Shown piece after piece: positions 7,874-20,463 of a DNA stretch of 64,000 bases. The stretch's first letter is position 1; the number at the start of each line of letters is the position of its first letter. The notes beneath the pieces were generated by a model, which was not told the origin of the DNA, searched no databases, and was given only the letters and a program-made list of their open reading frames with translations. A program made the position numbers and the translations under genes. The DNA is from Pseudomonadota bacterium (lineage in GTDB: Bacteria > Pseudomonadota > Alphaproteobacteria > Rhodobacterales > Rhodobacteraceae): positions 3,705-67,704 of the forward strand of contig JBCBHE010000021.1 of NCBI GenBank assembly GCA_038526085.1, given 5' to 3'.

Positions 7874-10800
7874 GTGTTCGATCGGATCTATCCCCAACGC
7901 CCACTGTGGGCGTTTAAGGGCGTTGCGCGTCGCGGAACGTCTGTGGCGGTTATGATCCTTTTCGGCTGGACCGAAATTGCTCGCGCGCAGGACCTGTCAT
8001 GGAACCTCACCAGTAACGGCAATTGGAACACGACGGATCCGAACTGGATCGAAGATGGGGTGGTTGCGCCGCTTGCGTTTACGAACGGCGCAAGCGTCAC
8101 GTTTGAAGAGGTGGGCGGCTTTACGGTGACCATCGACGATGGAAGCGTACAAGTCTCAGACATCACCTTTGTCGAAGACGGATATGCGATTGCGCAATCG
8201 AGCGGTGGCGCGCCCTTTGCCATTGAGCCGACAGGGGGTGCTTTTGCCCTGACGCTCAATGCGGGTGTCACAGCGACGGTTACCGCCCCGTTCACTGGTA
8301 CAGACCCAATCACGGTTGTGGGCACGCCGACATCAACTTTGGCCCTGTCCGGTGACAGCAGCGGCGCGACGGGCGAGTTGGATATCACCGGTGGAACGGT
8401 CACGCTCAGTGGTGATTATGGCGGTGCCGTCACTAACAGTGGTGAAAGCCTGACAAACACCGCAACGATTAGCGGTCTTGTCACCAATAACGCTGATCTG
8501 ACGGCGGCGGGGACCTTCAGCAGTGGGATTACCAATGCGGCTGGAACGGTGACAGTGACCGCGGACAGTACTGGCAACATAACGAACACTGGGGGTGATC
8601 TGACAGTCAACCTTGGGCAAACGTTGACTGGCGACGTCACGAATGCCGACGCGGCGCCCGACACGGTAGTCGACGGCAGCGTTGTGGGTAACCTGACGGT
8701 GTTCGACGGGACCGTCGACAACAATGGCACTGTGACCGGCAACACCGATGTGTCTGGTGGTGCGCTGACAAACGATGGGACGCTTGATGGGGCGTTGATT
8801 GTGACCGGCGGCACGGTGGACAACACCGCAAGCGTCGTCGGCAATGTCACCGTGAATGGCGGGACGGTCACGAACTCCGGGTCTTTGGGTGGCACGGTTG
8901 TAATTGCCCAGACCGGCGTTCCGGCAGCTGCTTTGAACGATACGGGTGGCACGATCGCCGGCTTGGTGACCAATACGGATGGCACGATCACGGCTGATGG
9001 CACCACGTTCACGTCTGGGCTGCAGCAGGATGGCGGTACCACGACGGCAACAGGCACGGATTTTGGAACCGGCGCCACGGTTGCAGGCGGTGCGCTCGCG
9101 ATCGACGGGGCCATGGCAGCGACGTCGACTGGCGATGTGGCTTTGACCGGCGGCGATCTGACGGTTGCGGCCGGGCAAACGTTGACCGGGGCTGTCACAA
9201 GTTCCGATGCTGCGTCTGAGACCGTGATCGATGGTACGGTGACGGGCGACCTGACAGTGAGCGACGGGACCGTCGACAACAATGGCACGGTCACTGGCAA
9301 TGCAGATGTGTCGGGCGGAGCGCTGACAAACGATGGGACGCTTGACGGTGCCCTTACCCAGTTGGATGGTGATGTGACGAACACCGGTGATGTGACTGGC
9401 AACACGATAATAAATAGCGGGACGTTTACCAATTCTGGCGGCTTGGGCGGGACACTGGTCTTGGATCAAACCGGGGCTGTTCCCGTCGAACTGAATGATA
9501 CTGGCGGCGTGATTGCTGGGCTGACGACAAATGTCGATGGCAGTATCACGGCTGACGGCACCACGTTTGCGGGCGGGTTGCGGCAGGTTGACGGTAACAC
9601 GGAGGTGACTGGCACCGATTTCGGCACCGGGTTGAACGTGGACGGCGGGAGCGTGACGATTTTCGGCTCCGCGCCAGCCACCAGTTCGGGCGATGCCACG
9701 CTGTCTGGCGGCGACTTGGTTGTTGGTGTGGACCAGACGTTTGCGGGTGACATTGTGATCGATGACCTCGATTCAGGCCTGCGCAATATTGGCACGATTG
9801 TTGGGGACGTCACTGTCAACGACGGTGTTTTCAATCATGAAGCGGTTGTGGTCGGTAATGTGATCGTCAACGATAGAAACTTCTTCAGCGAAGGCGGGCG
9901 TGTGACAGGGACCGTCACGCAGTCGGGTGGGATCAGCCGGTTCCGGCAAAGCCAAGTAGATGGTGGGTTGATCATTTCAGATGGCACGTCCAGCATTCGC
10001 GAGGACAGCACGCTGGACATCACAAACACAGGCGGTCGTGTTGATGTAGCGAGCGGGCAAACCCTGACAGGGAACATTGTTCAAACCGACGGACGGACGG
10101 ATTTGAGTGGTGTTGTCGATGGGACGTTGACGGCGAGCGGCGGTCGCGTCGACCACGGAGTCGGCGCAGACATTACGGGGCTAACGACGCTGCAAGGGGG
10201 CGTCGAGTTTAACGCGGACGGTGGCACATTTACCGGTGGATTGCGCGTTGAGGATGCCGATTTGACTTTGACCGGACCACTGGTCGGTGATCTTGAAAAC
10301 GCTGGCGAGGCGCTGTCCTTTGGCGATGGGGTCATTTTGGATGGCGACGTCTTGAATAGTGCTGGCACGTTGGATTTGGGCGCTTTGGTGACTGGCACGC
10401 TGACGGTCGATGACGGCGCTGTCACAACGACGCCCACTGCAACGATCCAAGGTGCGACGACCGTCAATGGTGGGACGTTGACTGCCGATGGCAGTACCTT
10501 CGACGGGGGGATCACCGTTGCTGGCGGCGATGTTGCGATCACAGAAGTGGGCACCATCAATGGCATGGCGATCAGTGACGGGACACTTGTGGTGGAAGGG
10601 ACCACGCCGTTGACCACCGACTTAGATGTGTCTGGTGGTGATACGACCCTGACGAGCGATATGGTGGGATCAGTCACGCAAAGTGGTGGGACGGTCACCC
10701 GATCCGGACAGTTGGATGGGACCGTCGATTTGAGCGATGGGACGTTCACAAATGCCGATGGTTCCATTTCGGGCGCCACGACGGTTACTGGTGGCACCCT

Positions 10801-13036
10801 GGTTGCAGATGGCGGCGACTTTGCTGAAACGGTTACAAGCCAGGGCGGCACGGTTCGGATTACAGGAGAGTCCACGGGCAGTATTGCGAACGTGTCTGGT
10901 GAGGTGATCGCCGAAACCGGTGGGACGCTTGATGGATCTATTACCAATCAAGGGACCGTAACTGGTGCTGGTGGCAGCATTACGGGTGATTTGACAAACA
11001 CCGGTACAGTCGATGTGACCGGCGGCGATTTGACTGTGGGTGACCTGACCTCGACAGGGAGTGTGACCGTTTCGAACGGTCATGCGTTGGGTTTTGACAC
11101 TGCAGAGATTGGCGGCGGAACCCTGGCGGTCACGAACGGGACGTTAGATGGCGACGTGACAGTTGCCGCTGGTGTCGATTTAACGGCGTCTAACATGACG
11201 GTCACCGGTGATTTCGCGACAATGACGGATCTGGTCAGCAATGGTGCGCTGAGCATCGGAGGTGACTTTGTAATGGACGACAGCGATCTGACCATTGCAA
11301 CCGGTCGTGCAGAGATCGGCGGCGATGTGACCTTTGCAGATGATGTGTTTGTGACGCTTGTGGATGGCACCGGATTGTCTGGGGCGACGATTACTAACGC
11401 GGGCCAGATGGCCGCCACCGGGACTGTCGCTTTCGCGGGCGACTTCACCAATTCTGGCACTCTGACAGCAACCGGCGCGCAAAGCTTCGATGGCCCGTTT
11501 ACGAACACTGGTACGTTGACCGCCACGGGCGATTTGTCCTTCAGTGGCCTTTTCACAAATAGTGGCGTCTTTGGTGCGGAAGGGTCGCTCACCTTTGGGG
11601 GCGGGCTGCAAAACACCAGCGGCATCACGACCGTGAACAACGACCCAACCGACACGATCACAATTGGGGGTGCCGGACTGAGCGGGGGTGGCACCCTGCA
11701 GTTTGATGTCGATTTATCGAACGAAGTGGGTGTGGCTGATCAGGTCACAATGGCACCAGGTGCCTTCATTACAGGCGATGTGACGCTGAACTTTAATGTC
11801 CTTGGCAGTGGCGCGCAGCAGCCCGTCGACCTTGTTTTAATTGACGTCGCTGCTGGTGACCCCGGCAACTTTAACATTGCCGCTGATGAGATTATCGACC
11901 CATCCGGCATTCTGACCTACAGCGTCACCCGCAATGCGGCAGGCGACGTTGTGATTGAGGATGCGCTGACGCCCGCGATTGCGGGTTTGGCCGGAAACAT
12001 CGTGCTGACCCAATCGCTGATTGGTTCGGTAGTGAACCGTCCGTCGAGCCCGTTTGTGACCAGTCTTGCCTATGAGGATGATAACCCATGCGGCTCAGGC
12101 ATGTGGGCGCGGACGATTGGCGGTGGTGCGACATCTGCAGGTGAGGTGTCGGAGTTCGGTTTGGAAGGCGGTGCATTTGATGGGCGCATCTCGGCCACCT
12201 TTGCTGGCGTCCAGTTGGGTGCCGACTTTGCGTGCTTTAACGGCGTCTACAACGGCTGGGACTTGGCCGTTGGCTCGATCGGTGGTGTGAACATCGGGCA
12301 GACCAGCCAGCCTGTGTTTGCGATTGATCTTGAGCAAGCGGACAACCTGTCGGATCGGCAGACCAGCACGACAACCGTTGACTTTACGCAGTTCTATAGC
12401 GGAGTGTATGCGACCGCTGTGCGTGGGCCTTGGGCCGTCGATTTGCAGTATCGGTTTGAGATGACCGACTTTACCGCGACCAATGAGGGTGCGGATGGTT
12501 TGCCGGGGCTTGGCCTTGATGACACCGCCTTCGATAGTTTTGCAACGACGCTGAGTGGGGCAGCGAGTTACGTCTATAATGTGCCTGACACGAACATTGC
12601 CCTCGTCCCGACCGCTGGCTTCGCCTTTACTCAGGTCAGTACTGACGAGATCAACTTTGAAAGTCGCGGCATCGTGCGCATTGACGACTTTGATAGCCGG
12701 ATTGGGTTCATTGGTGGTACGCTTGCGATATCCAACTTCGGCGACGATGGCGTGTCGGCGTACCAAGAATTTGTGTCGGCCACCATTTACAATGATTTTG
12801 CTGATGGTCCGACATCTACCTTTTCACCCGTTGACGAAAGCGGCGATCGCCGGTTGCGGACGGAGAACTTAGGGCTCTACAGCGAGCTGAGCGTTGGTGT
12901 GAACTACGTCAAGGTGCTGCAACCCGGAGAATTTGGCGCCGTCAAACAGCTGTCCGCCAATGCACGCGCTGATCTGAGGATCAGTGAAAGACTCAAAAGC
13001 TGGGGCATCACTGCCCAAGCCCGATATCAGTTCTAA
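7874..13036 (+). CDS. Giant autotransporter-like outer-membrane protein with Gly/Thr/Asp-rich beta-helical passenger
   Basis: Signal-peptide-like N-terminus ending IARA-QD; repetitive GTV/TNTG passenger; C-terminal ~300-aa barrel-like region starting near GMWARTIGGG and ending RYQF. Start uncertain (ORF is open from 7754; GTG 7874 chosen). Confidence 0.8.
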   Translation: MFDRIYPQRPLWAFKGVARRGTSVAVMILFGWTEIARAQDLSWNLTSNGNWNTTDPNWIEDGVVAPLAFTNGASVTFEEVGGFTVTIDDGSVQVSDITFVEDGYAIAQSSGGAPFAIEPTGGAFALTLNAGVTATVTAPFTGTDPITVVGTPTSTLALSGDSSGATGELDITGGTVTLSGDYGGAVTNSGESLTNTATISGLVTNNADLTAAGTFSSGITNAAGTVTVTADSTGNITNTGGDLTVNLGQTLTGDVTNADAAPDTVVDGSVVGNLTVFDGTVDNNGTVTGNTDVSGGALTNDGTLDGALIVTGGTVDNTASVVGNVTVNGGTVTNSGSLGGTVVIAQTGVPAAALNDTGGTIAGLVTNTDGTITADGTTFTSGLQQDGGTTTATGTDFGTGATVAGGALAIDGAMAATSTGDVALTGGDLTVAAGQTLTGAVTSSDAASETVIDGTVTGDLTVSDGTVDNNGTVTGNADVSGGALTNDGTLDGALTQLDGDVTNTGDVTGNTIINSGTFTNSGGLGGTLVLDQTGAVPVELNDTGGVIAGLTTNVDGSITADGTTFAGGLRQVDGNTEVTGTDFGTGLNVDGGSVTIFGSAPATSSGDATLSGGDLVVGVDQTFAGDIVIDDLDSGLRNIGTIVGDVTVNDGVFNHEAVVVGNVIVNDRNFFSEGGRVTGTVTQSGGISRFRQSQVDGGLIISDGTSSIREDSTLDITNTGGRVDVASGQTLTGNIVQTDGRTDLSGVVDGTLTASGGRVDHGVGADITGLTTLQGGVEFNADGGTFTGGLRVEDADLTLTGPLVGDLENAGEALSFGDGVILDGDVLNSAGTLDLGALVTGTLTVDDGAVTTTPTATIQGATTVNGGTLTADGSTFDGGITVAGGDVAITEVGTINGMAISDGTLVVEGTTPLTTDLDVSGGDTTLTSDMVGSVTQSGGTVTRSGQLDGTVDLSDGTFTNADGSISGATTVTGGTLVADGGDFAETVTSQGGTVRITGESTGSIANVSGEVIAETGGTLDGSITNQGTVTGAGGSITGDLTNTGTVDVTGGDLTVGDLTSTGSVTVSNGHALGFDTAEIGGGTLAVTNGTLDGDVTVAAGVDLTASNMTVTGDFATMTDLVSNGALSIGGDFVMDDSDLTIATGRAEIGGDVTFADDVFVTLVDGTGLSGATITNAGQMAATGTVAFAGDFTNSGTLTATGAQSFDGPFTNTGTLTATGDLSFSGLFTNSGVFGAEGSLTFGGGLQNTSGITTVNNDPTDTITIGGAGLSGGGTLQFDVDLSNEVGVADQVTMAPGAFITGDVTLNFNVLGSGAQQPVDLVLIDVAAGDPGNFNIAADEIIDPSGILTYSVTRNAAGDVVIEDALTPAIAGLAGNIVLTQSLIGSVVNRPSSPFVTSLAYEDDNPCGSGMWARTIGGGATSAGEVSEFGLEGGAFDGRISATFAGVQLGADFACFNGVYNGWDLAVGSIGGVNIGQTSQPVFAIDLEQADNLSDRQTSTTTVDFTQFYSGVYATAVRGPWAVDLQYRFEMTDFTATNEGADGLPGLGLDDTAFDSFATTLSGAASYVYNVPDTNIALVPTAGFAFTQVSTDEINFESRGIVRIDDFDSRIGFIGGTLAISNFGDDGVSAYQEFVSATIYNDFADGPTSTFSPVDESGDRRLRTENLGLYSELSVGVNYVKVLQPGEFGAVKQLSANARADLRISERLKSWGITAQARYQF
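8588..9800 (+). repeat. 558-bp (186-aa) tandem intragenic repeat: two clear copies plus a diverged third
   Basis: GACGGGACCGTCGACAACAATGGCAC at 8705 and 9263; GGDL-x-V unit starts at 8588, 9146 and 9704 (period 558). Confidence 0.85.
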
Positions 13037-13044
13037 GGATTAAA

Positions 13045-13794
13045 ATGACCCCTGCAGACCCCTTTATGAAGGTTGATTTCGCGTTCGAAAGCTTCGGCGC
13101 GACTGATATTGGGCTCCGCCGTAAATACAACGAAGACCGCTTTGCCATGTTGCCGGAGCATGGTGTTTGGCTTGTCGCCGATGGGATGGGGGGGCACGCT
13201 GGCGGCGACTATGCGAGCCAAGCCGTGATCGATGACTTACCAAGTTTTGAAGGCGCTTTGACCCTTGGAGATTTGGAAAACCGGTTTCACGATGGGTTGG
13301 CTGAGGCGCATGTCCGAATGCTGCGGGTCGCGAAGGCGCTGAGCATGGATGCGATCGCCACGACCGTGGTTGGGTTGCTGATTTATCAGGATGAATTTGC
13401 ATCAATTTGGTCGGGCGACAGCCGCCTTTACCAGATGCGCGACGGGTCCCTGAAGCCGGTCACGCGCGACCATTCCGAAGCACGAGAGTTGGTGGATGCG
13501 GGTGTCTTGACCCCGGAGCAGGCGCGCACCTGGCATCGCCGCAATATCGTGACACGCGCCCTTGGGGTTTATGACCATCTAAGCGCAGAGACTGCCTATG
13601 GGGAGGTTGCGGCTGGCGATACCTTCTTGCTGTGTACCGATGGACTGACCGAACATGTCACGGATCAAGAACTTGAAGCGATCCTGAAGGAGGCCGACAG
13701 CGCGCAGGCGGCCGTTGAGAAGATGATCAGCAAGACGCTCGACCGGGGTGCGGTCGACAACGTCACGGCGATTGTCGTGCGGGTGCAGTCATGA
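13045..13794 (+). CDS. PP2C/PPM-family Ser/Thr protein phosphatase
   Basis: TDIGLRRKYNED, VADGMGGH, GDSRLY, LLCTDGLT, DNVT. Confidence 0.95.
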   Translation: MTPADPFMKVDFAFESFGATDIGLRRKYNEDRFAMLPEHGVWLVADGMGGHAGGDYASQAVIDDLPSFEGALTLGDLENRFHDGLAEAHVRMLRVAKALSMDAIATTVVGLLIYQDEFASIWSGDSRLYQMRDGSLKPVTRDHSEARELVDAGVLTPEQARTWHRRNIVTRALGVYDHLSAETAYGEVAAGDTFLLCTDGLTEHVTDQELEAILKEADSAQAAVEKMISKTLDRGAVDNVTAIVVRVQS

Positions 13795-15569
13795 CACAGG
13801 TTGACCCACCTATGGGGGCTGGTGCTTTGGAAAGCACGGTGCCGCTTGGGACGGTCATCAACAACAACTACAAGATCATGGAGCTACTGAGCATTGGTGG
13901 CATGGGTGAGGTGTTCTTGGGCGAGAACACGTTCACGGGCGACCCTGTGGCGATTAAGATCGTGCTGCGCGAGCTAGCCCAAGATGAGAACATTACCCAG
14001 TTATTCCGAAAAGAAGCTCGCGTGCTTTGCGGTTTGTCGGACCCAGCGGTCGTTCGGTACTTCAACTTTGTTCGTGATGAAAACCTCGACCGGTATTGCC
14101 TGATCATGGAGTTTGTCGACGGCATGGTGCTGTCCGATCATGTGCTCAAGGTCGCGCCACTGGATGTTGAAACGGCGTTGGTTTTGCTGCGCCGCTTGGC
14201 GGTTGGGCTGGCCCAGGTCCACGCGATGGGTGTTGTGCACCGCGACCTGTCGCCCGACAACGTAATCCTCCGCGACAATGCGATTGATGAGGCGGTGCTC
14301 ATCGATTTTGGCATCGCAAAATCGACGGAGCTGTCGGACAAGACGCTGCACGGGCAGTTGACTGGCAAGCTAAAGTTTATTTCACCCGAACAGCTGGGCC
14401 ACCATGATAGCGTGATCAGCCGGAAGACGGATATCTACGGTCTTGCCTTGCTGATCGCCTATGCGGTGCAGGGCAAGCCGTTGCCGATGGGTGAATCGGT
14501 GGTGGAAGCGGTGAACGCCCGGATGGTGATCCCTGATCTACGTGAATTCGACCCGCGTTTACGCGCCATTCTGGCCCATATGTTGGAACCCGATCCTGCG
14601 GATCGACCCGACAGTATGGATGCCGTCGTCGAATTGGTTGATCATCCGGGCCGGCTGCCTGAGAAGTACCGCCCTTTAGGCCCAAAGGTGGACCCGAGTG
14701 CCGCCTCAGATGCGGCAATGGATGCGGTGTTTCAGCCGCCCAAGCTGATCCCCGGCAAGCTTGCCGTCGATGCTCCGCTAGAGCCAGCAGTGCCTGCCGC
14801 AAGTGGTGGCGCTACGCTGCGATGGGTTGGGGTGCTGGCCTTGGTTGGTGCGCTTGGCTGGTTTGTGGCGGATCAGCAGGGATGGCTTGGAACGCCGGAG
14901 GTGGCTGATACGGAAGAGACCGTTGACGTGGCGCCTGCAACCGAAGGCGCTGTCACCCGCGCCAGCTATCTGGCGACCTATGCAGAAGGCTGCGCCTTTG
15001 CGGTGCGGATTGCAGCGGGGCCGGACGCAGGGACGGTTGCGGGTTATGCAGGTGATGTCGCAGCCTTTGATGACCTGTCCGCAGATTACGATGCGACGTT
15101 CAGCGCCGCCCCGACGGTGAATACGTTTGCGTTGTCAGGGGCCCAATGCCCTGTTGCGACGCTTGGCAAGGCCTTGCAATCCCGCGATGGGGGTGCGCCG
15201 TTGATGACGCTTGATAGTGACACCATGCAAAGTGATGGCACGATTGTTGGGCGCCTGTCTGACCGGCGTGGGCGGCCCGTGTGGCTGGCACTCGTGACGG
15301 CGGCAGGGGGCGTTTATAACCTGACGGATCGGCTGGTCGAACAGCCAGACGGCAGTGCGACTTTCAATTTTGGCCTAACTGCCGATGGCACGGACGCGCC
15401 GCAGGGGCAGGTGCTTATCGCCTTGGCGAGTGATGCACCCCTGATCGCCGCTGCGGCAGCGGCCGAAGGGGCATCAGCGCAGAGTCTTCTCCCATTGATC
15501 GAAGCGGAGATTGCTGGACGTGATGGACGCGTGGGTATGGCTTTGGGGTACTTTACGCTTGAGCCTTAA
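13791..15569 (+). CDS. Membrane-anchored Hanks-type Ser/Thr kinase with periplasmic C-terminal domain
   Basis: GGMGEVF, VAIK, HRDLSPDN, DFG, SPEQ, DIYGL; TM WVGVLALVGALGWFVA; ~200-aa C-terminal domain with two Cys. Confidence 0.93.
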   Translation: MTQVDPPMGAGALESTVPLGTVINNNYKIMELLSIGGMGEVFLGENTFTGDPVAIKIVLRELAQDENITQLFRKEARVLCGLSDPAVVRYFNFVRDENLDRYCLIMEFVDGMVLSDHVLKVAPLDVETALVLLRRLAVGLAQVHAMGVVHRDLSPDNVILRDNAIDEAVLIDFGIAKSTELSDKTLHGQLTGKLKFISPEQLGHHDSVISRKTDIYGLALLIAYAVQGKPLPMGESVVEAVNARMVIPDLREFDPRLRAILAHMLEPDPADRPDSMDAVVELVDHPGRLPEKYRPLGPKVDPSAASDAAMDAVFQPPKLIPGKLAVDAPLEPAVPAASGGATLRWVGVLALVGALGWFVADQQGWLGTPEVADTEETVDVAPATEGAVTRASYLATYAEGCAFAVRIAAGPDAGTVAGYAGDVAAFDDLSADYDATFSAAPTVNTFALSGAQCPVATLGKALQSRDGGAPLMTLDSDTMQSDGTIVGRLSDRRGRPVWLALVTAAGGVYNLTDRLVEQPDGSATFNFGLTADGTDAPQGQVLIALASDAPLIAAAAAAEGASAQSLLPLIEAEIAGRDGRVGMALGYFTLEP

Positions 15570-15588
15570 GGCGCCGCGCATCGTCCGA

Positions 15589-16908
15589 CTAGCGTACGTC
15601 GAATGGGGCAACTGTGATTGTCGCCCGGCCTTCAATCTCAGAGGTGAGCGCGCCGAAGTAGTTTTCGGCCAATTGACCGTTTTGGCGCGTCGAGGAAGTG
15701 GGCCGTGTTGCCGTCCCGATTGCCAGCAAGAGTTGACGGGTATCGCGTGCCGCGCCAGCACGTCGTAGCGGAGCTGCGAAGCGCGCTGTGTTCACGCCAA
15801 CCGTCAGGTAGTTGCCAAGGTCTTGGGCGACGCCGTTGTCATCAACCAGGACAAGGGTAATGTTGCGCCCGCCCGTGCCCGACAGACGCCCTGTCAGCTC
15901 TGTTCCGCTTTCAATGCGCGGTGCATCGAGGCCAAGCGCCATCGGTCCGGTTGGGTAGCCCGCTGTTGCCCGGATGTAATCGAGCGCCGCGCATTGGCGT
16001 GGATCGACAAGGATCGTGCTTTGCGGGGGGCGTGGCGTGAGACCAGCGAGGATTTCGTCAGTGTAAGGTCCGACGGCGGCTTCATTTGCCGCATAGATTT
16101 GCAAGCTGACTGTGCCGTTCTGCTGCAGTGGTATCGCAATCATACAAGTGGCGCCAACTGAGGCGCGAATACGCGCGATCAAGTCTGCTGCCAAAGGATC
16201 GGGGATGACGGCGTCTGGCACGGCAGGGCGTGGGGCAGGGGCTGGCGTACCAAGGGTTTCCGCTTGCGCGATCGCTTGGGTCACTGGTGACTGCGACTGG
16301 GTTGTTTGCACAACGCGGGCCTGTGAGACCGGTTGTGCCACGGTTGTGGATGGCGCGGCAGGGGCGGTAGTTACCGTCTCTGCGAGCTGCGATGCAGGCT
16401 GTGTCGGCGCAGACGCAACGGGTGCCGCGGTTGGATTGACTGGGCGCAGGGGGCTGATGGTTTCTGGTCCGATAGCTGGTGCGGTTGATGCGGTTTCCGA
16501 CTCTGTTGCGGTGTCTGCAGGCGCGATCGCATCTAGCGCATCGGACGGCGAAACGGGGGCAAGGATTTCGCGTTTGGTGATGTCTTGCAAGCCGTCTTCT
16601 ACGGCGATGGCTTCGGTTTCCTGACCATCCGTTTGCGCATCGACGACGAGGGAGGCCCCAACAGGCTGGAGCGTGTCGGCGCCATCGCCTCCGGTGTCAC
16701 CGGAGCCGATTTCGGCACTAAAGACGTTTCGTGTATCGATGGAGAGGGAGGTGATCTGGACCTCTGGCGTCTCCCGTTCTTGTAAGTCAAAAACAGCACC
16801 GACATCGACCACAGCCGTCAGCACGAAATAAGCGAAACCGACGTGGACAAGAGCGGATAGCCCAAAGGCCTCCGCCCAATGCAGCGGCTTTTCGTTTTGG
16901 ACGATCAT
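15589..16908 (-). CDS. TonB/TolA-like single-pass protein with non-TonB C-terminal domain
   Basis: N-terminal TM with S-x3-H (LSALVHVG); Ala/Pro/Thr/Gln-rich linker; follows exbB-exbD-exbD; C-domain resembles the kinase C-domain. Confidence 0.7.
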   Translation of the reverse strand: MIVQNEKPLHWAEAFGLSALVHVGFAYFVLTAVVDVGAVFDLQERETPEVQITSLSIDTRNVFSAEIGSGDTGGDGADTLQPVGASLVVDAQTDGQETEAIAVEDGLQDITKREILAPVSPSDALDAIAPADTATESETASTAPAIGPETISPLRPVNPTAAPVASAPTQPASQLAETVTTAPAAPSTTVAQPVSQARVVQTTQSQSPVTQAIAQAETLGTPAPAPRPAVPDAVIPDPLAADLIARIRASVGATCMIAIPLQQNGTVSLQIYAANEAAVGPYTDEILAGLTPRPPQSTILVDPRQCAALDYIRATAGYPTGPMALGLDAPRIESGTELTGRLSGTGGRNITLVLVDDNGVAQDLGNYLTVGVNTARFAAPLRRAGAARDTRQLLLAIGTATRPTSSTRQNGQLAENYFGALTSEIEGRATITVAPFDVR

Positions 16909-17309
16909 TGCACCTGGTCCCGCGTTCGCAATGTGACGAGGCGGAGTTCAATGTTGGAGAGGGCAGGGGTGTTCATCACCTCTAGCAGTCCCGATGCTGG
17001 CGCATCGCGCCCGATCAGGACATGCAGCACAATCGGCTTTGGCAAGTCCGCCAGCGCCACATCCATGAGTTCAGGTGCAACAGGCATCCCGTCGAGTTGC
17101 CAATGATCCCCATCCACGATCAGGATCGGGGTTGGGAGGGCATCGATTGGAAGTTCTTGTGTCTCTGCCAAGTCCACATCGCCAGTTGCGGGGTTCAGCA
17201 ATTGGCCGGTCGCCAAGAAGAACAAGATCAGCAACAGCACAATGTTCACGATGGCGAGGGAGACATCGAGCTTGATGGGCTCGGGGCGTTTGGGGAGACT
17301 GTCGATCAT
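16905..17309 (-). CDS. exbD: ExbD/TolR family protein (Asn at the usual TM Asp position)
   Basis: SLAIVNIVLLLILFFLATG transmembrane segment; periplasmic domain with GRDAP; ATGA overlap with neighbours. Confidence 0.75.
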   Translation of the reverse strand: MIDSLPKRPEPIKLDVSLAIVNIVLLLILFFLATGQLLNPATGDVDLAETQELPIDALPTPILIVDGDHWQLDGMPVAPELMDVALADLPKPIVLHVLIGRDAPASGLLEVMNTPALSNIELRLVTLRTRDQVQ

Positions 17310-17746
17310 ACTGTGCCCCCTGCGATTTGTACGTTTGTAATACCCGCTGTCGTTAGCGCTTCAACCACGCGCGCCAAATCTTGCACCACTGCGCCATCGC
17401 GTAAGATTAACAGGACCGTGGTGTCTTGGGTCGCCATGGCGGCGGTGAGATCCGGCAGCGCTTCAAACCCGAAGGCTTGACCGCTGACAGTGACGCCGTC
17501 GGCGGATACGTTCCAAATGGCGACCTCTGCAAAGGAGGTTGCTGTGCTTTCTGCGGCAGTGCCGGCCGTGTTTGCAAAGTCGCCCGATGCCCCGCTTCGG
17601 ATTGTCATGAGCGCGTAGGGTGCCAGACTGCTCGACAACATAAAGAAGATCAGCAATTGGAACATCGCGTCGGCCAAGGGCGTCAGCACAAATTTGTACC
17701 GGCGTGGCCGTTGGGCGAGCGTGAATTTGGGGGCGACCGTTGTCAT
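17306..17746 (-). CDS. exbD: ExbD/TolR family protein
   Basis: LTPLADAMFQLLIFFMLSS with conserved TM Asp. Confidence 0.82.
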   Translation of the reverse strand: MTTVAPKFTLAQRPRRYKFVLTPLADAMFQLLIFFMLSSSLAPYALMTIRSGASGDFANTAGTAAESTATSFAEVAIWNVSADGVTVSGQAFGFEALPDLTAAMATQDTTVLLILRDGAVVQDLARVVEALTTAGITNVQIAGGTV

Positions 17747-17755
17747 GGCGCAGGT

Positions 17756-18397
17756 TTATCCCGCTGCCTCACTGTCGACGCGCCCGTGGATTGCGGCAGA
17801 GATCAGCGTTTCCATCGCCTGACGCTCTCCCTCGATCCGGCCTTCGAGCCAGGTCGCGGCGAAGTAGGTGATCAGTGCGATGGCCAGGCCCGCGGCCGTG
17901 GTGGTCAGCGCTGTCCAGATACCGCTGGCCAGCAATGTTGGGTCCACGGTGCCATCGGCAGCGGCGAGGGTCGAAAAGGCATCGATCATGCCAATCACAG
18001 TGCCGAGGAGGCCGAGCATCGGGGCACCTTGTACGATAACCTCGAGCACACGCATGCGGCGCGACAGCCGCGAGAGTTCCGTCATCGCCGTTTGACGGCC
18101 AAGTTCTGCCGCGAAGTCAGGCATACCTGGTTTGGCACGCAGGCCGGAGAAGACGGATTGTAACACGCGTCCTAACACAAAGCGCTGTTCACCCGCATGG
18201 CGCACCGCGTCTTCGGCTTGGCCGCCAAGCCAAGTGCCCAAGATCGCTTCTGCCGCGTTGAATTGGCCGACGCCAAGGCGATTGAACTGGAAGGTCTTGT
18301 AGAAAGTGACGGTGACCGCCAGCACAGACATGATTGCGAGCGCCGCGAAAACAATCAACGACGGCAAGTTCAAAACGGACAAATCAGGAGCGTTCAT
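17756..18397 (-). CDS. exbB: MotA/TolQ/ExbB proton channel protein
   Basis: GAPMLGLLGTVIGMIDAF, GIWTALTTTAAGLAIAL. Confidence 0.92.
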   Translation of the reverse strand: MNAPDLSVLNLPSLIVFAALAIMSVLAVTVTFYKTFQFNRLGVGQFNAAEAILGTWLGGQAEDAVRHAGEQRFVLGRVLQSVFSGLRAKPGMPDFAAELGRQTAMTELSRLSRRMRVLEVIVQGAPMLGLLGTVIGMIDAFSTLAAADGTVDPTLLASGIWTALTTTAAGLAIALITYFAATWLEGRIEGERQAMETLISAAIHGRVDSEAAG

Positions 18398-18409
18398 ATG
18401 GGGACGCCT

Positions 18410-18853
18410 TTACAAACCAAACTGAATCGCAGCACGGGATGATGTTGCGAGGGAGGACATGCAGAAATCACCGGTCGTGGCGGTATCTGTTGGCGTACAC
18501 GCCGCCACATCGTTAACGATGATGCGCGAGGTGTCAGCACAGGTCTGACCGGCGATGTCGAATTGAACCACGCGGGTCTTGCCTTCGGGCAGCGCGCCAA
18601 AGGCCAAAACCAGGATACGGCTTACGATACCATTGCCGTCAAACACGGCGACTTCGTAAGACGCTTGGTCGAGCCCGGTGCCGGTGCGATTGGTTGCGAC
18701 ATAGGTCAAACGGCAGTCGCTGGTCGCGGTATCCGAAGCTGAGTTGAGTTCCAAAAAGAACTCCTCAGCCTCATTTTGGGCAAATACCGGTGTTATCGAT
18801 GCTGCTGAGACGGCAAATGCGGTCAGCAAAGCGGGAATCAGGCGGTAGCTCAT
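18410..18853 (-). CDS. Secreted four-Cys hypothetical protein, first gene of the motor operon
   Basis: Signal peptide ending PVFA-QN; LELN...CR...FGALPEGKTRVVQFD...C...NDVAAC. As I recall, this type sits ahead of exbBD in alphaproteobacteria (not verified). Confidence 0.75.
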   Translation of the reverse strand: MSYRLIPALLTAFAVSAASITPVFAQNEAEEFFLELNSASDTATSDCRLTYVATNRTGTGLDQASYEVAVFDGNGIVSRILVLAFGALPEGKTRVVQFDIAGQTCADTSRIIVNDVAACTPTDTATTGDFCMSSLATSSRAAIQFGL

Positions 18854-19023
18854 CGGAACCTCAACAGTAGGTAACTCAAAGGGTTGCAGCGAATTGGCCG
18901 CATTGTTCGCAGGCTGGCAACAAAGCTTGGCAGAATTGTGGCCCAGGCAAGGTTTTGGAAGGCAATCCGCAGGGTCGGATCGCCTGTAATTTGAGGGCGC
19001 CGGAATTGGCGCAGAGTTGGGTG

Positions 19024-20463
19024 ATGATGGCGCGACGCTGGATCACAACGGGTCTATGTGCATCCGCACTTGCGGTGTCGTTCGCGACTGTCGCGCATGC
19101 TGAGGCCAAACGCGCATTGGTGGTAGTGGATCGACCGGATGCAGCGGATCAGGCCATCGCGATCTCAGAGACTTTGTTAGGGCTCGGCTTTGACGTTGCG
19201 CGCCTGGAATCCCCCACCCCGCAGGCCCTGGACGACGCGCTACAGACACTGACAGTAGAAGGTGGACCAACGGCAATTTACTTTGCCGGGGATCTTGGCG
19301 ATCTGACGGATTTCACGGGCGCTGGTGGTGAGACCCCGAGATTTATTTTCGTCGATGCATGCCAAGAGGTTGCTGTTGATGCGCTTCCGTCGAATGTCTT
19401 TCTGGTCAGCCCAGGTGCTGATTGTGCGGGTGATGTTGCGGCTGTTGTGCAGGAGTGGTTGACCGTTCCCGGCCTGAGCACCGATCAATGGGACCTGGGC
19501 GAGACGGTTCAGATTTCTTCAACACTCACCGCCCCATACGTCTTTCGCGAAACCACCAGCGACGTGCGGTTGACGGCCGAAGACTACGCCTTGCTTGATA
19601 GTCTGTCGCCCGAGGCGCGCGCCCAAATGATCCGGTTGTGGCGGAGCGCCGGCATTGCCGTGGACGTTGCGGACGCAGCTGCGTTGGCTCCCGTTGCCCC
19701 TGTTCAAGTGGCCCGTGATACGGTGCAGGTGATTGCGCCCGTATCTGCGGCGGCCGCATCGACGGTTGTCCGCCCAATTGCCCCGGTTCCGGTTTCCGGT
19801 GGTGTCACACAACCCGCTCGGGCGGGAAGCACGAGCCGCACCCTGAGCCCGACGATTAATTTACCAACCCCAGGCGCGGCTGGTCTGCCTGCGCCGTCGA
19901 TCCTTGTCGGCTTTGTCACGGATAGCTTGCCAGAGGCGCCAGAAGTGCCCGATGAGCCGGTCGCAGGTGCTGCTTTCGGTACCGATGATGTTGCGGCGCG
20001 CGAAGCGCTGCGGGAGCAAGACGCTGATCTGTTTGCGGGTTTGGTTTCATCCGGTGCGTTCGACCCGACTGACGATGTCATTCGCGCCTTGCAAGTCGAG
20101 TTGGCCCGGATCAACTGCTACACGTCGGGGATTGATGGCGCTTGGGGCCCCGGATCACAGCGGGCCTTGGCCGCATTCTATGACCTGAGCGGGACGAACC
20201 CGTCCGACGCGACACCTGATCTTGAGGATTTCCGCACCGTGATCGCAGCAAATGGCGTTCGCTGTCCGGATCCGCCGCCGCCGCCGACTCGCCAAGCAGC
20301 GACATCGTCGCAATCGACAGCGCAACCGGCTCGCGCGGCAGCACCGGCTGCATCACAGCCACGCCGGGCGACACCTGCACCGGCACCCGCGCCAGCCCCT
20401 GCTGCGCCGTCCGCGCCGCGCCGGAGCATCAACCAGACTGGAGGGTCTGGTATCTTCCGCTAG
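19024..20463 (+). CDS. Secreted protein: degenerate caspase (peptidase C14)-like domain, Pro/Ala linker, peptidoglycan-binding domain
   Basis: Signal peptide ending VAHA-EAK; KRALVV, LGFDV, IYFAGD, FVDACQ; ALQVELARINCYTSGIDGAWGPGSQRAL (PG_binding_1-like). Confidence 0.75.
   Translation: MMARRWITTGLCASALAVSFATVAHAEAKRALVVVDRPDAADQAIAISETLLGLGFDVARLESPTPQALDDALQTLTVEGGPTAIYFAGDLGDLTDFTGAGGETPRFIFVDACQEVAVDALPSNVFLVSPGADCAGDVAAVVQEWLTVPGLSTDQWDLGETVQISSTLTAPYVFRETTSDVRLTAEDYALLDSLSPEARAQMIRLWRSAGIAVDVADAAALAPVAPVQVARDTVQVIAPVSAAAASTVVRPIAPVPVSGGVTQPARAGSTSRTLSPTINLPTPGAAGLPAPSILVGFVTDSLPEAPEVPDEPVAGAAFGTDDVAAREALREQDADLFAGLVSSGAFDPTDDVIRALQVELARINCYTSGIDGAWGPGSQRALAAFYDLSGTNPSDATPDLEDFRTVIAANGVRCPDPPPPPTRQAATSSQSTAQPARAAAPAASQPRRATPAPAPAPAPAAPSAPRRSINQTGGSGIFR

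Follow-up and report, generated by a model that had tools for sequence, protein, structure and literature searches.

Nine genes in three packed units

The stretch of DNA analysed here (the window) comprises 64,000 nt of contig JBCBHE010000021.1 from a bacterium of the Rhodobacteraceae, whose assembly is 91% complete and consists of 123 contigs. Its subject is a block of nine packed open reading frames (ORFs) at 7874-20463, confirmed by ORF listing and translation, which encodes a large surface protein, a PP2C phosphatase, a Ser/Thr kinase, a motor of the Ton type and a secreted caspase-like protein. The nine ORFs, and one domain within the kinase, are as follows.

7874..13036, + strand: predicted type Va autotransporter, 1720 aa (AlphaFold2 model and Foldseek)
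13045..13794, + strand: PP2C Ser/Thr phosphatase, ortholog of PppA of type VI secretion systems (T6SS) (Pfam PP2C_2, E 8e-10; NCBIfam Stp1-type, E 5e-57)
13791..15569, + strand: Hanks-type Ser/Thr kinase, ortholog of T6SS PpkA (Pfam Pkinase, E 2e-33)
14922..15566, + strand: two-Cys periplasmic domain of the kinase, paralog of the tip of the TonB-like protein (hhalign)
15589..16908, - strand: TonB/TolA-like force transducer, 439 aa (transmembrane motif and ortholog alignment)
16905..17309, - strand: ExbD paralog 2, ExbD2 (weak Pfam ExbD match, E 0.003)
17306..17746, - strand: ExbD paralog 1, ExbD1 (Pfam ExbD, E 6e-11)
17756..18397, - strand: ExbB/TolQ-type proton channel (MotA_ExbB, E 1.5e-26)
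18410..18853, - strand: secreted four-Cys protein, Cys4, first gene of the motor operon (signal peptide)
18955..20463, + strand: secreted pseudo-caspase with a Pro/Ala linker and a weak PG_binding_1-like C-terminus (Pfam)

An earlier reading made from the letters alone (the sequence-only reading) had described three tight units at this locus, and its account of the gene spacing agrees with the sequence throughout. The stop codon of the autotransporter gene (TAA, 13034-13036) is followed by an 8-bp gap (TAA ggattaaa ATG) and the PP2C start at 13045; the end of the PP2C gene and the start of the kinase gene share ATGA (13791-13794); and the kinase stop lies 19 bp from the stop of the convergent TonB-like gene, in tail-to-tail arrangement. 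Searches of Pfam and NCBIfam leave four of the proteins (autotransporter, TonB-like protein, four-Cys protein and pseudo-caspase) with no significant family match. Scans of the locus for promoters and terminators and for tandem repeats were uninformative.

The kinase and the force transducer carry the same periplasmic domain

The kinase consists of a catalytic domain (residues 27-278), a transmembrane (TM) segment at about 343-360 and a periplasmic domain (378-592). The catalytic K, HRD and DFG residues are invariant in the ortholog alignment, window copy included. The TonB-like protein, encoded by the converging operon, has an N-terminal TM segment with the motif S18-x3-H22, a long Ala/Pro/Thr/Gln linker and a C-terminal domain of ~205 aa (15592-16206) that forms its tip. 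All of six aligned orthologs have this Ser and His, and the two residues are conserved in about 50 loci for which the N-terminus was recovered. The protein has no match in Pfam, and none to TonB_C at E values up to 10.

That the two converging operons share a homologous periplasmic domain had been proposed by the sequence-only reading and is now firmly established. Pairwise BLASTP of the kinase domain against the TonB-like tip is marginal (E 3e-4); hhalign with six orthologs on each side aligns 189 columns with a probability of 98.6% and E 6.8e-16. The AlphaFold2 model of the tip domain, built on a 108-sequence alignment [predicted local distance difference test (pLDDT) 96], has an alpha/beta subdomain followed by an immunoglobulin (Ig)-like sandwich. 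Comparison of the shared domain with the PDB by Foldseek returns generic Ig-like sandwiches only, none better than E 1e-3, and Pfam has no match to it. A profile search of 1.84 billion representative proteins places 1360 clusters (50% identity) in the domain family at E values up to 0.001. In most of the matches listed the domain is C-terminal and the protein is ~350-620 aa long, as TonB-like proteins are; three longer matches (724-860 aa) were scanned and all are kinases. Three further, rare proteins, P0001 (1874 aa), P0002 (1004 aa) and P0003 (1035 aa), carry three to five tandem copies of the domain and no Pfam domain.

One locus of a relative, L127 (G284:C1:27000-46999), holds a T6SS cluster ordered TssL-TssM-PP2C-kinase in which the kinase has the shared domain, with no ExbB/ExbD/TonB-like operon. 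Because this kinase has the domain without the motor, the kinase may have had it before the motor arm did.

The remainder of the minus-strand operon resembles the motor of Ton systems. ExbD1 keeps the proton-carrying TM Asp (D26), which is Asp in 77/77 orthologs. At the same position ExbD2 has Asn in the window protein and in 72/77 orthologs, and Ser in the other five (5/77). ExbB is 57-86% identical to its orthologs, with a ratio of nonsynonymous to synonymous substitution rates (dN/dS) of 0.053. Cys4 has no Pfam match; its four Cys are invariant in all 74 of 74 homologs, including a paralog on contig C80 of the same genome, which is taken up below.

A divergent autotransporter heads the first unit

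The sequence-only reading took the large first protein for an autotransporter, and comparison of folds bears this out. The protein has a signal peptide (cleavage read at ...ARA/QD), an acidic beta-helical passenger with repetitive beta-strands, a linker helix and a C-terminal beta-barrel that ends in a terminal Phe (...RYQF). Neither the whole protein nor its last 399 aa matches a Pfam or NCBIfam model at E values up to 10, and a PDB profile search gives noise only. The last 450 aa were aligned with 20 homologs and modelled by AlphaFold2 [pLDDT 84, predicted TM-score (pTM) 0.79]; in the model, beta-helix strands are followed by a 21-residue helix (97-117) and then by barrel strands. The top Foldseek matches to this model in the PDB are the translocators of EspP, EstA, Hbp, AIDA-I, BrkA and NalP (E 4e-17 to 1e-10), and the target-normalised TM-scores against known translocators are 0.58-0.85. 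Since sequence-profile searches of Pfam, NCBIfam and the PDB find nothing, the protein represents a divergent family; judged by its predicted fold, the product of 7874..13036 is a genuine type Va autotransporter and a conserved member of the locus. Its orthologs span 1200-3300 aa, and its dN/dS (window against the relative G032) is 0.155.

In relatives the module is part of a T6SS cluster

A TonB-like profile scan of one genome per species yielded 80 loci, for which marker maps were drawn by tblastn. Nearly all are from Rhodobacterales (Yoonia, Loktanella, Sulfitobacter, Tateyamaria, Paracoccus, Jannaschia, Celeribacter, Marivivens and others). The sequence-only reading had itself named routine proximity of the homologs to T6SS genes as an observation that would speak against its proposal, and such proximity is the rule: at least one T6SS core gene lies within 10 kb at 66 of the 80 loci, most of the others being short contigs, and the exact arrangement TonB-like >< kinase-PP2C-TssM (>< denoting convergent and <> divergent neighbours) recurs at 53. 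The usual order is autotransporter-tssK-tssL-tssM-tagF-PP2C-kinase >< tonB-like-exbD2-exbD1-exbB-cys4 <> DUF1036-pseudocaspase-M23 ... clpV-tssGFE-hcp-tssC-tssA-fha. TonB-like homologs occur in five other genomes of the same genus, and the whole block is syntenic in four of them, flanked on one side by genes for a ClpV-like protein, M23/SLT, the pseudo-caspase and DUF1036 and on the other by TagF-TssM-TssL(DotU+OmpA)-TssK, with the genes for Fha, TssA, TssC, Hcp, TssE, TssF and TssG more distant. In the relatives Pfam confirms IcmF/TssM, DotU-OmpA/TssL, TssK, TagF, FHA/T6SS_FHA_C, ImpA/TssA, VipB/TssC, Hcp, TssE, TssF, TssG and a ClpV-like AAA+ protein, the last being called ClpV from its position in the cluster.

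The same association is seen when 401 genera of the family are sampled at one genome each. The shared domain is present in 36 genera, TssC in 103 and the autotransporter C-terminus in 37. TssC occurs in 34 of the 36 domain-bearing genera vs 69 of the 365 without the domain (odds ratio 73, p 3e-20). Autotransporter and shared domain occur together in 30 genera, the autotransporter only in seven and the domain only in six (odds ratio 256, Fisher p 1e-32). With order and orientation kept in dozens of genera, this synteny and the Fisher tests rule out chance adjacency of the module genes, as the sequence-only reading had held; the neighbourhood analysis that it had proposed thus shows that the units belong together, and it also shows T6SS genes to be their usual neighbours.

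The autotransporter follows the same pattern. In at least 36 module genomes it lies, by contig coordinates, within a few kb of the T6SS locus, mostly just past tssL, and in G020 and G026 it stands directly upstream of tssK-tssL-tssM-tagF-PP2C-kinase on the same strand. A different layout is seen at five Paracoccus loci (L059, L073, L094, L098 and L100), where the motor operon is followed directly by clpV-tssG-tssF-tssE-hcp-tssC-tssA; these clusters have no kinase/PP2C beside the motor, and the autotransporter lies on the M23 side or tens of kb off.

The kinase and phosphatase of the window are 35-54% and 41-49% identical, respectively, to their orthologs in the same genus (for the phosphatase, the T6SS-linked orthologs of four genomes), and in these relatives the pair sits between the TonB-like gene and tagF-tssM-tssL. 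The threonine-phosphorylation pathway of the T6SS comprises PpkA, PppA and Fha; in Agrobacterium tumefaciens it acts through phosphothreonine on TssL together with TagF, and in Pseudomonas aeruginosa through TagQRST and PpkA. Given the T6SS neighbourhood of its orthologs, the kinase/PP2C pair is, on comparative grounds, the PpkA/PppA switch of an Agrobacterium-like T6SS operon. Most T6SS-linked kinase orthologs carry an N-terminal extension with one to eight (1-8) [DE]xTx[IVLF] repeats that resemble, at the level of the motif, FHA-binding pTxxI phosphothreonine motifs; the kinases of the window and of G032 are without this extension. Examples of the repeats (L013:11143-13104, L014:7415-9478, L015:10780-12870 and others) read DDDKTQIA and DDRTEIA, and a similar sequence, DDDDKTVF, is present close to the N-terminus of TssL in relatives.

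The T6SS core is missing and the other genes are conserved

Family searches of the window genome detect no TssC (PF05943) and no TssM (PF14331), and tblastn of the genome with the proteins of relatives finds no Fha, TssA, TssC, Hcp, TssE, TssF, TssG, TssM or DUF1036. Two relatives share this state in the genes searched: G032 has no TssM and no TssC, and G511 no TssM. The FHA family (PF00498) has no match in the window genome or G511, and a weak match in the third assembly of this clade. Contig C20 of the window genome, with matches to ClpV, M23 and TssL-OmpA, was considered as a decayed T6SS and rejected, as it holds ClpA-like and MotB/OmpA-like proteins.

A tree of ExbB, ExbD1 and ExbD2 groups the window genome, G032 and G511 as a single clade (100% support) that branches from within T6SS-bearing lineages. 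The tssK, tssL, tssM and tagF genes that separate autotransporter and PP2C in relatives are cleanly missing, which leaves 8 bp between the stop of the autotransporter gene and the start of PP2C. The gap in G032 is the same 8 bp; the four genes were therefore probably deleted once, before the three species diverged, as far as the junctions tell. The flanks of the T6SS-less loci are unrelated housekeeping genes in all cases, and in G032 the two operons are on different contigs with unrelated flanks.

What remains is well preserved. All nine window ORFs are full length. In G032 and G511 the motor operon and pseudo-caspase are likewise intact, as is the autotransporter-PP2C-kinase unit in G032, at a nucleotide divergence of ~27% between the genomes. 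For eight genes dN/dS against G032 is 0.05-0.16 (0.065 for PP2C and 0.13 for the kinase), with dS saturated. The surviving genes look functional and appear to be under purifying selection. A second T6SS-less case comes from another genus: G149 (locus L124 = G149:C60:1-14143) has PP2C-kinase >< TonB-like-ExbD2-ExbD1-ExbB-Cys4, with a TonB-like protein of 770 aa, housekeeping genes on the flanks and no TssC or TssM. There is no autotransporter match in the G149 assembly, and no pseudo-caspase or M23 gene beside its motor.

A candidate envelope-sensing module

We take the locus for the accessory shell that remained of a Rhodobacterales T6SS cluster when its core was deleted, an orphaned and still functional envelope-sensing module; the chances of this being right we put at about even. 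That the module survives under selection with neither T6SS nor FHA reader points to an independent function.

How such a module would work can be outlined from its parts. ExbB with an ExbD1(Asp)/ExbD2(Asn) heterodimer would turn proton flow into movement of the TonB-like arm, a transducer in which TonB_C appears to have been swapped for a copy of the kinase sensor domain. Since tip and kinase domain are paralogs, they may bind the same envelope partner, or each other. The PpkA-like kinase, reset by PP2C, would then report engagement of the motor arm with the outer envelope by threonine phosphorylation. In relatives this signal may control whether or where the T6SS assembles, by way of Fha and TssL phosphothreonine; in the window lineage, with the T6SS and Fha outputs gone, the module would have to act on another target. 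As the surface element of the sensing chain the autotransporter is the best candidate, although it would be dispensable to the motor-kinase pair.

A bolder proposal, which we hold tentatively, is that motor, kinase and autotransporter together form an autonomous proton-powered sensor of mechanical state or surface contact, which signals through threonine phosphorylation and in this lineage was rewired to another output after loss of the T6SS. That such a sensor aims and triggers the T6SS in most Rhodobacterales, with the tip and sensor domains as the physical coupling point, is likewise possible and on the doubtful side.

Several observations weigh against a functional orphan module. In the tree, the branch that leads to the G149 motor is very long, at 1.6 substitutions per site. 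The window assembly is incomplete and two of its T6SS-less relatives are metagenome-assembled genomes, so a T6SS could sit on an unassembled replicon; the gene junctions document loss of the core for this one copy of the cluster only. Partial decay is indicated by the pseudo-caspase, which at 58% identity is the least conserved of the genes and has an internal deletion, by the kinase, which is without the N-terminal TxxI-type repeats, and by the lack of any FHA reader. As dS is saturated, dN/dS is a long-time average and blind to recent relaxation.

Alternative readings of the locus

Some of these observations are also what would be expected of a non-functional relic, the leftovers of a deleted T6SS cluster heading for loss: the lack of T6SS core genes and FHA reader, the repeat-less kinase, the truncated and most diverged pseudo-caspase and, in G032, operons already split onto different contigs with unrelated flanks. 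A relic is hard to reconcile with nine full-length ORFs and with units still intact in G032 and G511 at their degree of divergence, with the low dN/dS and intact catalytic and motor residues, and with G149, a second independent T6SS-less genus that keeps the same core set. We judge it unlikely.

The proposal of the sequence-only reading was that motor and kinase/phosphatase form a dedicated machine acting on the autotransporter (in its deployment, release or surface sensing), which would make the T6SS a mere frequent neighbour. The autotransporter is indeed nearly confined to genomes with the module (30 of the 37 autotransporter-positive genera); the C-terminal domain of the protein was found in 49 of the 50 genomes that carry the module, as a rule once and right next to the cluster, and the T6SS-less clade has kept the gene, under constraint, 8 bp upstream of PP2C. 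TssW of Acidovorax offers a precedent, being located in the outer membrane and binding the periplasmic domain of PpkA (PMC12607579). These links are weakened by G149, which keeps motor and kinase and has no autotransporter match; by four T6SS-bearing genera (G167, G178, G228 and G230) with an autotransporter and without the TonB-like/kinase domain; and by the Paracoccus clusters, where the motor has no adjacent kinase. Moreover, the autotransporter of relatives is co-operonic with tssK-tssL-tssM and not with the motor, and nothing resembling a TonB box was identified. Secretion by the type Va route does not depend on an energy source in the inner membrane. Together these points make a dedicated autotransporter machine improbable.

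The divergent gene at the other end of the block bears on a further alternative. Its likely true start is the ATG at 19024. The caspase-like call of the sequence-only reading stands for the family, since an ortholog matches Peptidase_C14 at E 1.2e-8, and is weak for the window copy, with E 0.16 and no catalytic His. The match of the window protein to PG_binding_1 (PF01471) is likewise weak (E 0.042, 14.5 bits, below the 23-bit cut-off). The catalytic Cys (FVDAC) is kept in 51/51 family members and the catalytic His in only 9/51; the window copy reads Asp at this place (YFAGD) and has a ~27-column alignment gap between the two catalytic strands. With the His missing, as in 42 of the 51 relatives, and with this gap, the protein is probably a binding protein rather than a protease, and the family appears to consist mostly of pseudo-enzymes with a conserved thiol. 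In most of the 80 loci its neighbours between clpV and the motor operon include conserved M23/SLT and DUF1036 genes, for instance a ~770-aa Peptidase_M23 + SLT-like protein at L013:2878-5178 and a 142-aa DUF1036 protein at L013:6849-7277; both genes are absent from the window genome.

The motor could accordingly be imagined as part of a Tol-Pal-like structural or cell-wall module that, with pseudo-caspase, M23/SLT and DUF1036, opens or re-seals the envelope for the T6SS, the kinase domain serving for co-localisation only. The three genes flank the motor operon at most T6SS-bearing loci, the TssL of relatives has an OmpA peptidoglycan anchor, and other T6SSs recruit cell-wall enzymes such as MltE and TagX. 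However, the motor was kept in the window lineage though M23/SLT and DUF1036 were lost, that of G149 has no adjacent pseudo-caspase or M23, and the locus has no TolB or Pal analog, which leaves this alternative quite unlikely.

The motor operon has one paralog in the same genome. Contig C80:1622-6166, outside the window, carries a second cys4-exbB pair, 33% and 37% identical to the genes of the motor operon. This pair follows a TonB-dependent receptor gene and a gene for a 751-aa membrane/siderophore-interacting-like fusion, and runs off the contig end. Because a cys4-exbB paralog adjoins a receptor, the motor operon looks like a duplicate of the housekeeping Ton operon. The window genome has five TonB-dependent receptor genes, and a genome-wide search for TonB_C detected none. 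As the exbB paralog ends contig C80, we read this negative as an assembly gap, in which the tonB of the C80 operon probably lies. It is very improbable that the motor is an ordinary Ton system energising TonB-dependent receptors encoded elsewhere, for although there are five receptor genes without a detectable TonB_C and the cys4-exbB-exbD layout is paralogous to the operon beside the C80 receptor, the tip is not TonB_C by sequence or fold, no receptor gene lies beside the operon in the marker maps of the 80 loci, where T6SS genes are the constant neighbours, and a separate exbB paralog already adjoins the receptor on C80.

Implications

Only a handful of the modules that tell a T6SS when and where to fire have been described (TagQRST, TssW, RtkS, TslA). 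A dedicated Ton-like motor whose arm ends in a copy of the PpkA sensor would be a new, energy-dependent input to the T6SS, and an autotransporter heading the tssK-tssL-tssM operon would add a candidate surface element. The window would offer a natural experiment, a module under selection without T6SS or FHA reader, in which the sensor is parted from its usual output. For the Ton/Tol field it would add an obligate Asp/Asn pair of ExbD proteins and a transducer whose tip domain is new. Among the T6SS-bearing carriers that can be cultured are Loktanella agnita, Sulfitobacter noctilucae, Jannaschia rubra, Celeribacter ethanolicus and Primorskyibacter flagellatus.

Neither a T6SS-linked Ton-like motor nor a T6SS-linked autotransporter turned up in a full-text literature search. 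ExbB, TonB, autotransporters and caspases are absent from a 2026 review of T6SS accessory factors, and a 2025 survey of periplasmic force transducers makes no mention of T6SS or kinases (PMC12204202). The sequence-only reading offered the system as a candidate undescribed one; no publication was found of the T6SS-linked motor, and the kinase and phosphatase are orthologs of T6SS PpkA and PppA.

Comparison with known systems

The phosphorylation arm is closest to the PpkA/PppA pathway. The window has the same one-TM Hanks kinase with a periplasmic domain together with a PP2C, and the orthologs are encoded in tssK-tssL-tssM-tagF-pppA-ppkA operons with Fha. Unlike that pathway, the window lacks T6SS, Fha and TagF, and the periplasmic domain belongs to a family with no Pfam model or PDB relative. 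In contrast to TagQRST-PpkA, the sensor upstream of the kinase in relatives is proposed to be a Ton-like motor with an arm that copies the kinase sensor domain. Nor does the window assembly contain a T6SS cluster, as it lacks the core set of genes (tssA-tssM, hcp, clpV) by which such clusters are recognized.

TssW of Acidovorax citrulli is an outer-membrane T6SS accessory protein that binds PpkA and TssM and positions the machine upstream of PpkA (PMC12607579). The autotransporter resembles it in being predicted to reside in the outer membrane and in being encoded with the T6SS; this is a functional analogy, and the window family differs in consisting of type Va autotransporters of 1200-3300 aa. 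With EspP, Hbp, AIDA-I, BrkA and NalP it shares the predicted linker helix and beta-barrel, the signal peptide, the beta-strand passenger and the terminal Phe. Unlike classical type Va autotransporters, it matches no Pfam or NCBIfam model and is, in relatives, the first gene of a T6SS membrane-complex operon. The pseudo-caspase is similar to bacterial C14 + PG_binding_1 proteins in the Peptidase_C14 match of its ortholog and in the invariant catalytic Cys, and departs from C14 caspases in its incomplete His-Cys dyad and, in the window copy, the ~27-column gap.

The motor has the essential parts of Ton and TolQRA: an ExbB channel, an ExbD with the TM Asp, and a transducer with the S-x3-H TM motif and an extended linker. 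Unlike in Tol-Pal, neither the window locus nor the marker maps of its relatives contain TolB or Pal genes, and the fold of the tip is unrelated to known structures. The motor differs from both Ton and TolQRA in its second ExbD, which has Asn for Asp in nearly all orthologs, and in a transducer tip that is neither TonB_C nor TolA-III; in place of a receptor, TolB or Pal at the locus, its genomic partners are the T6SS and the kinase.

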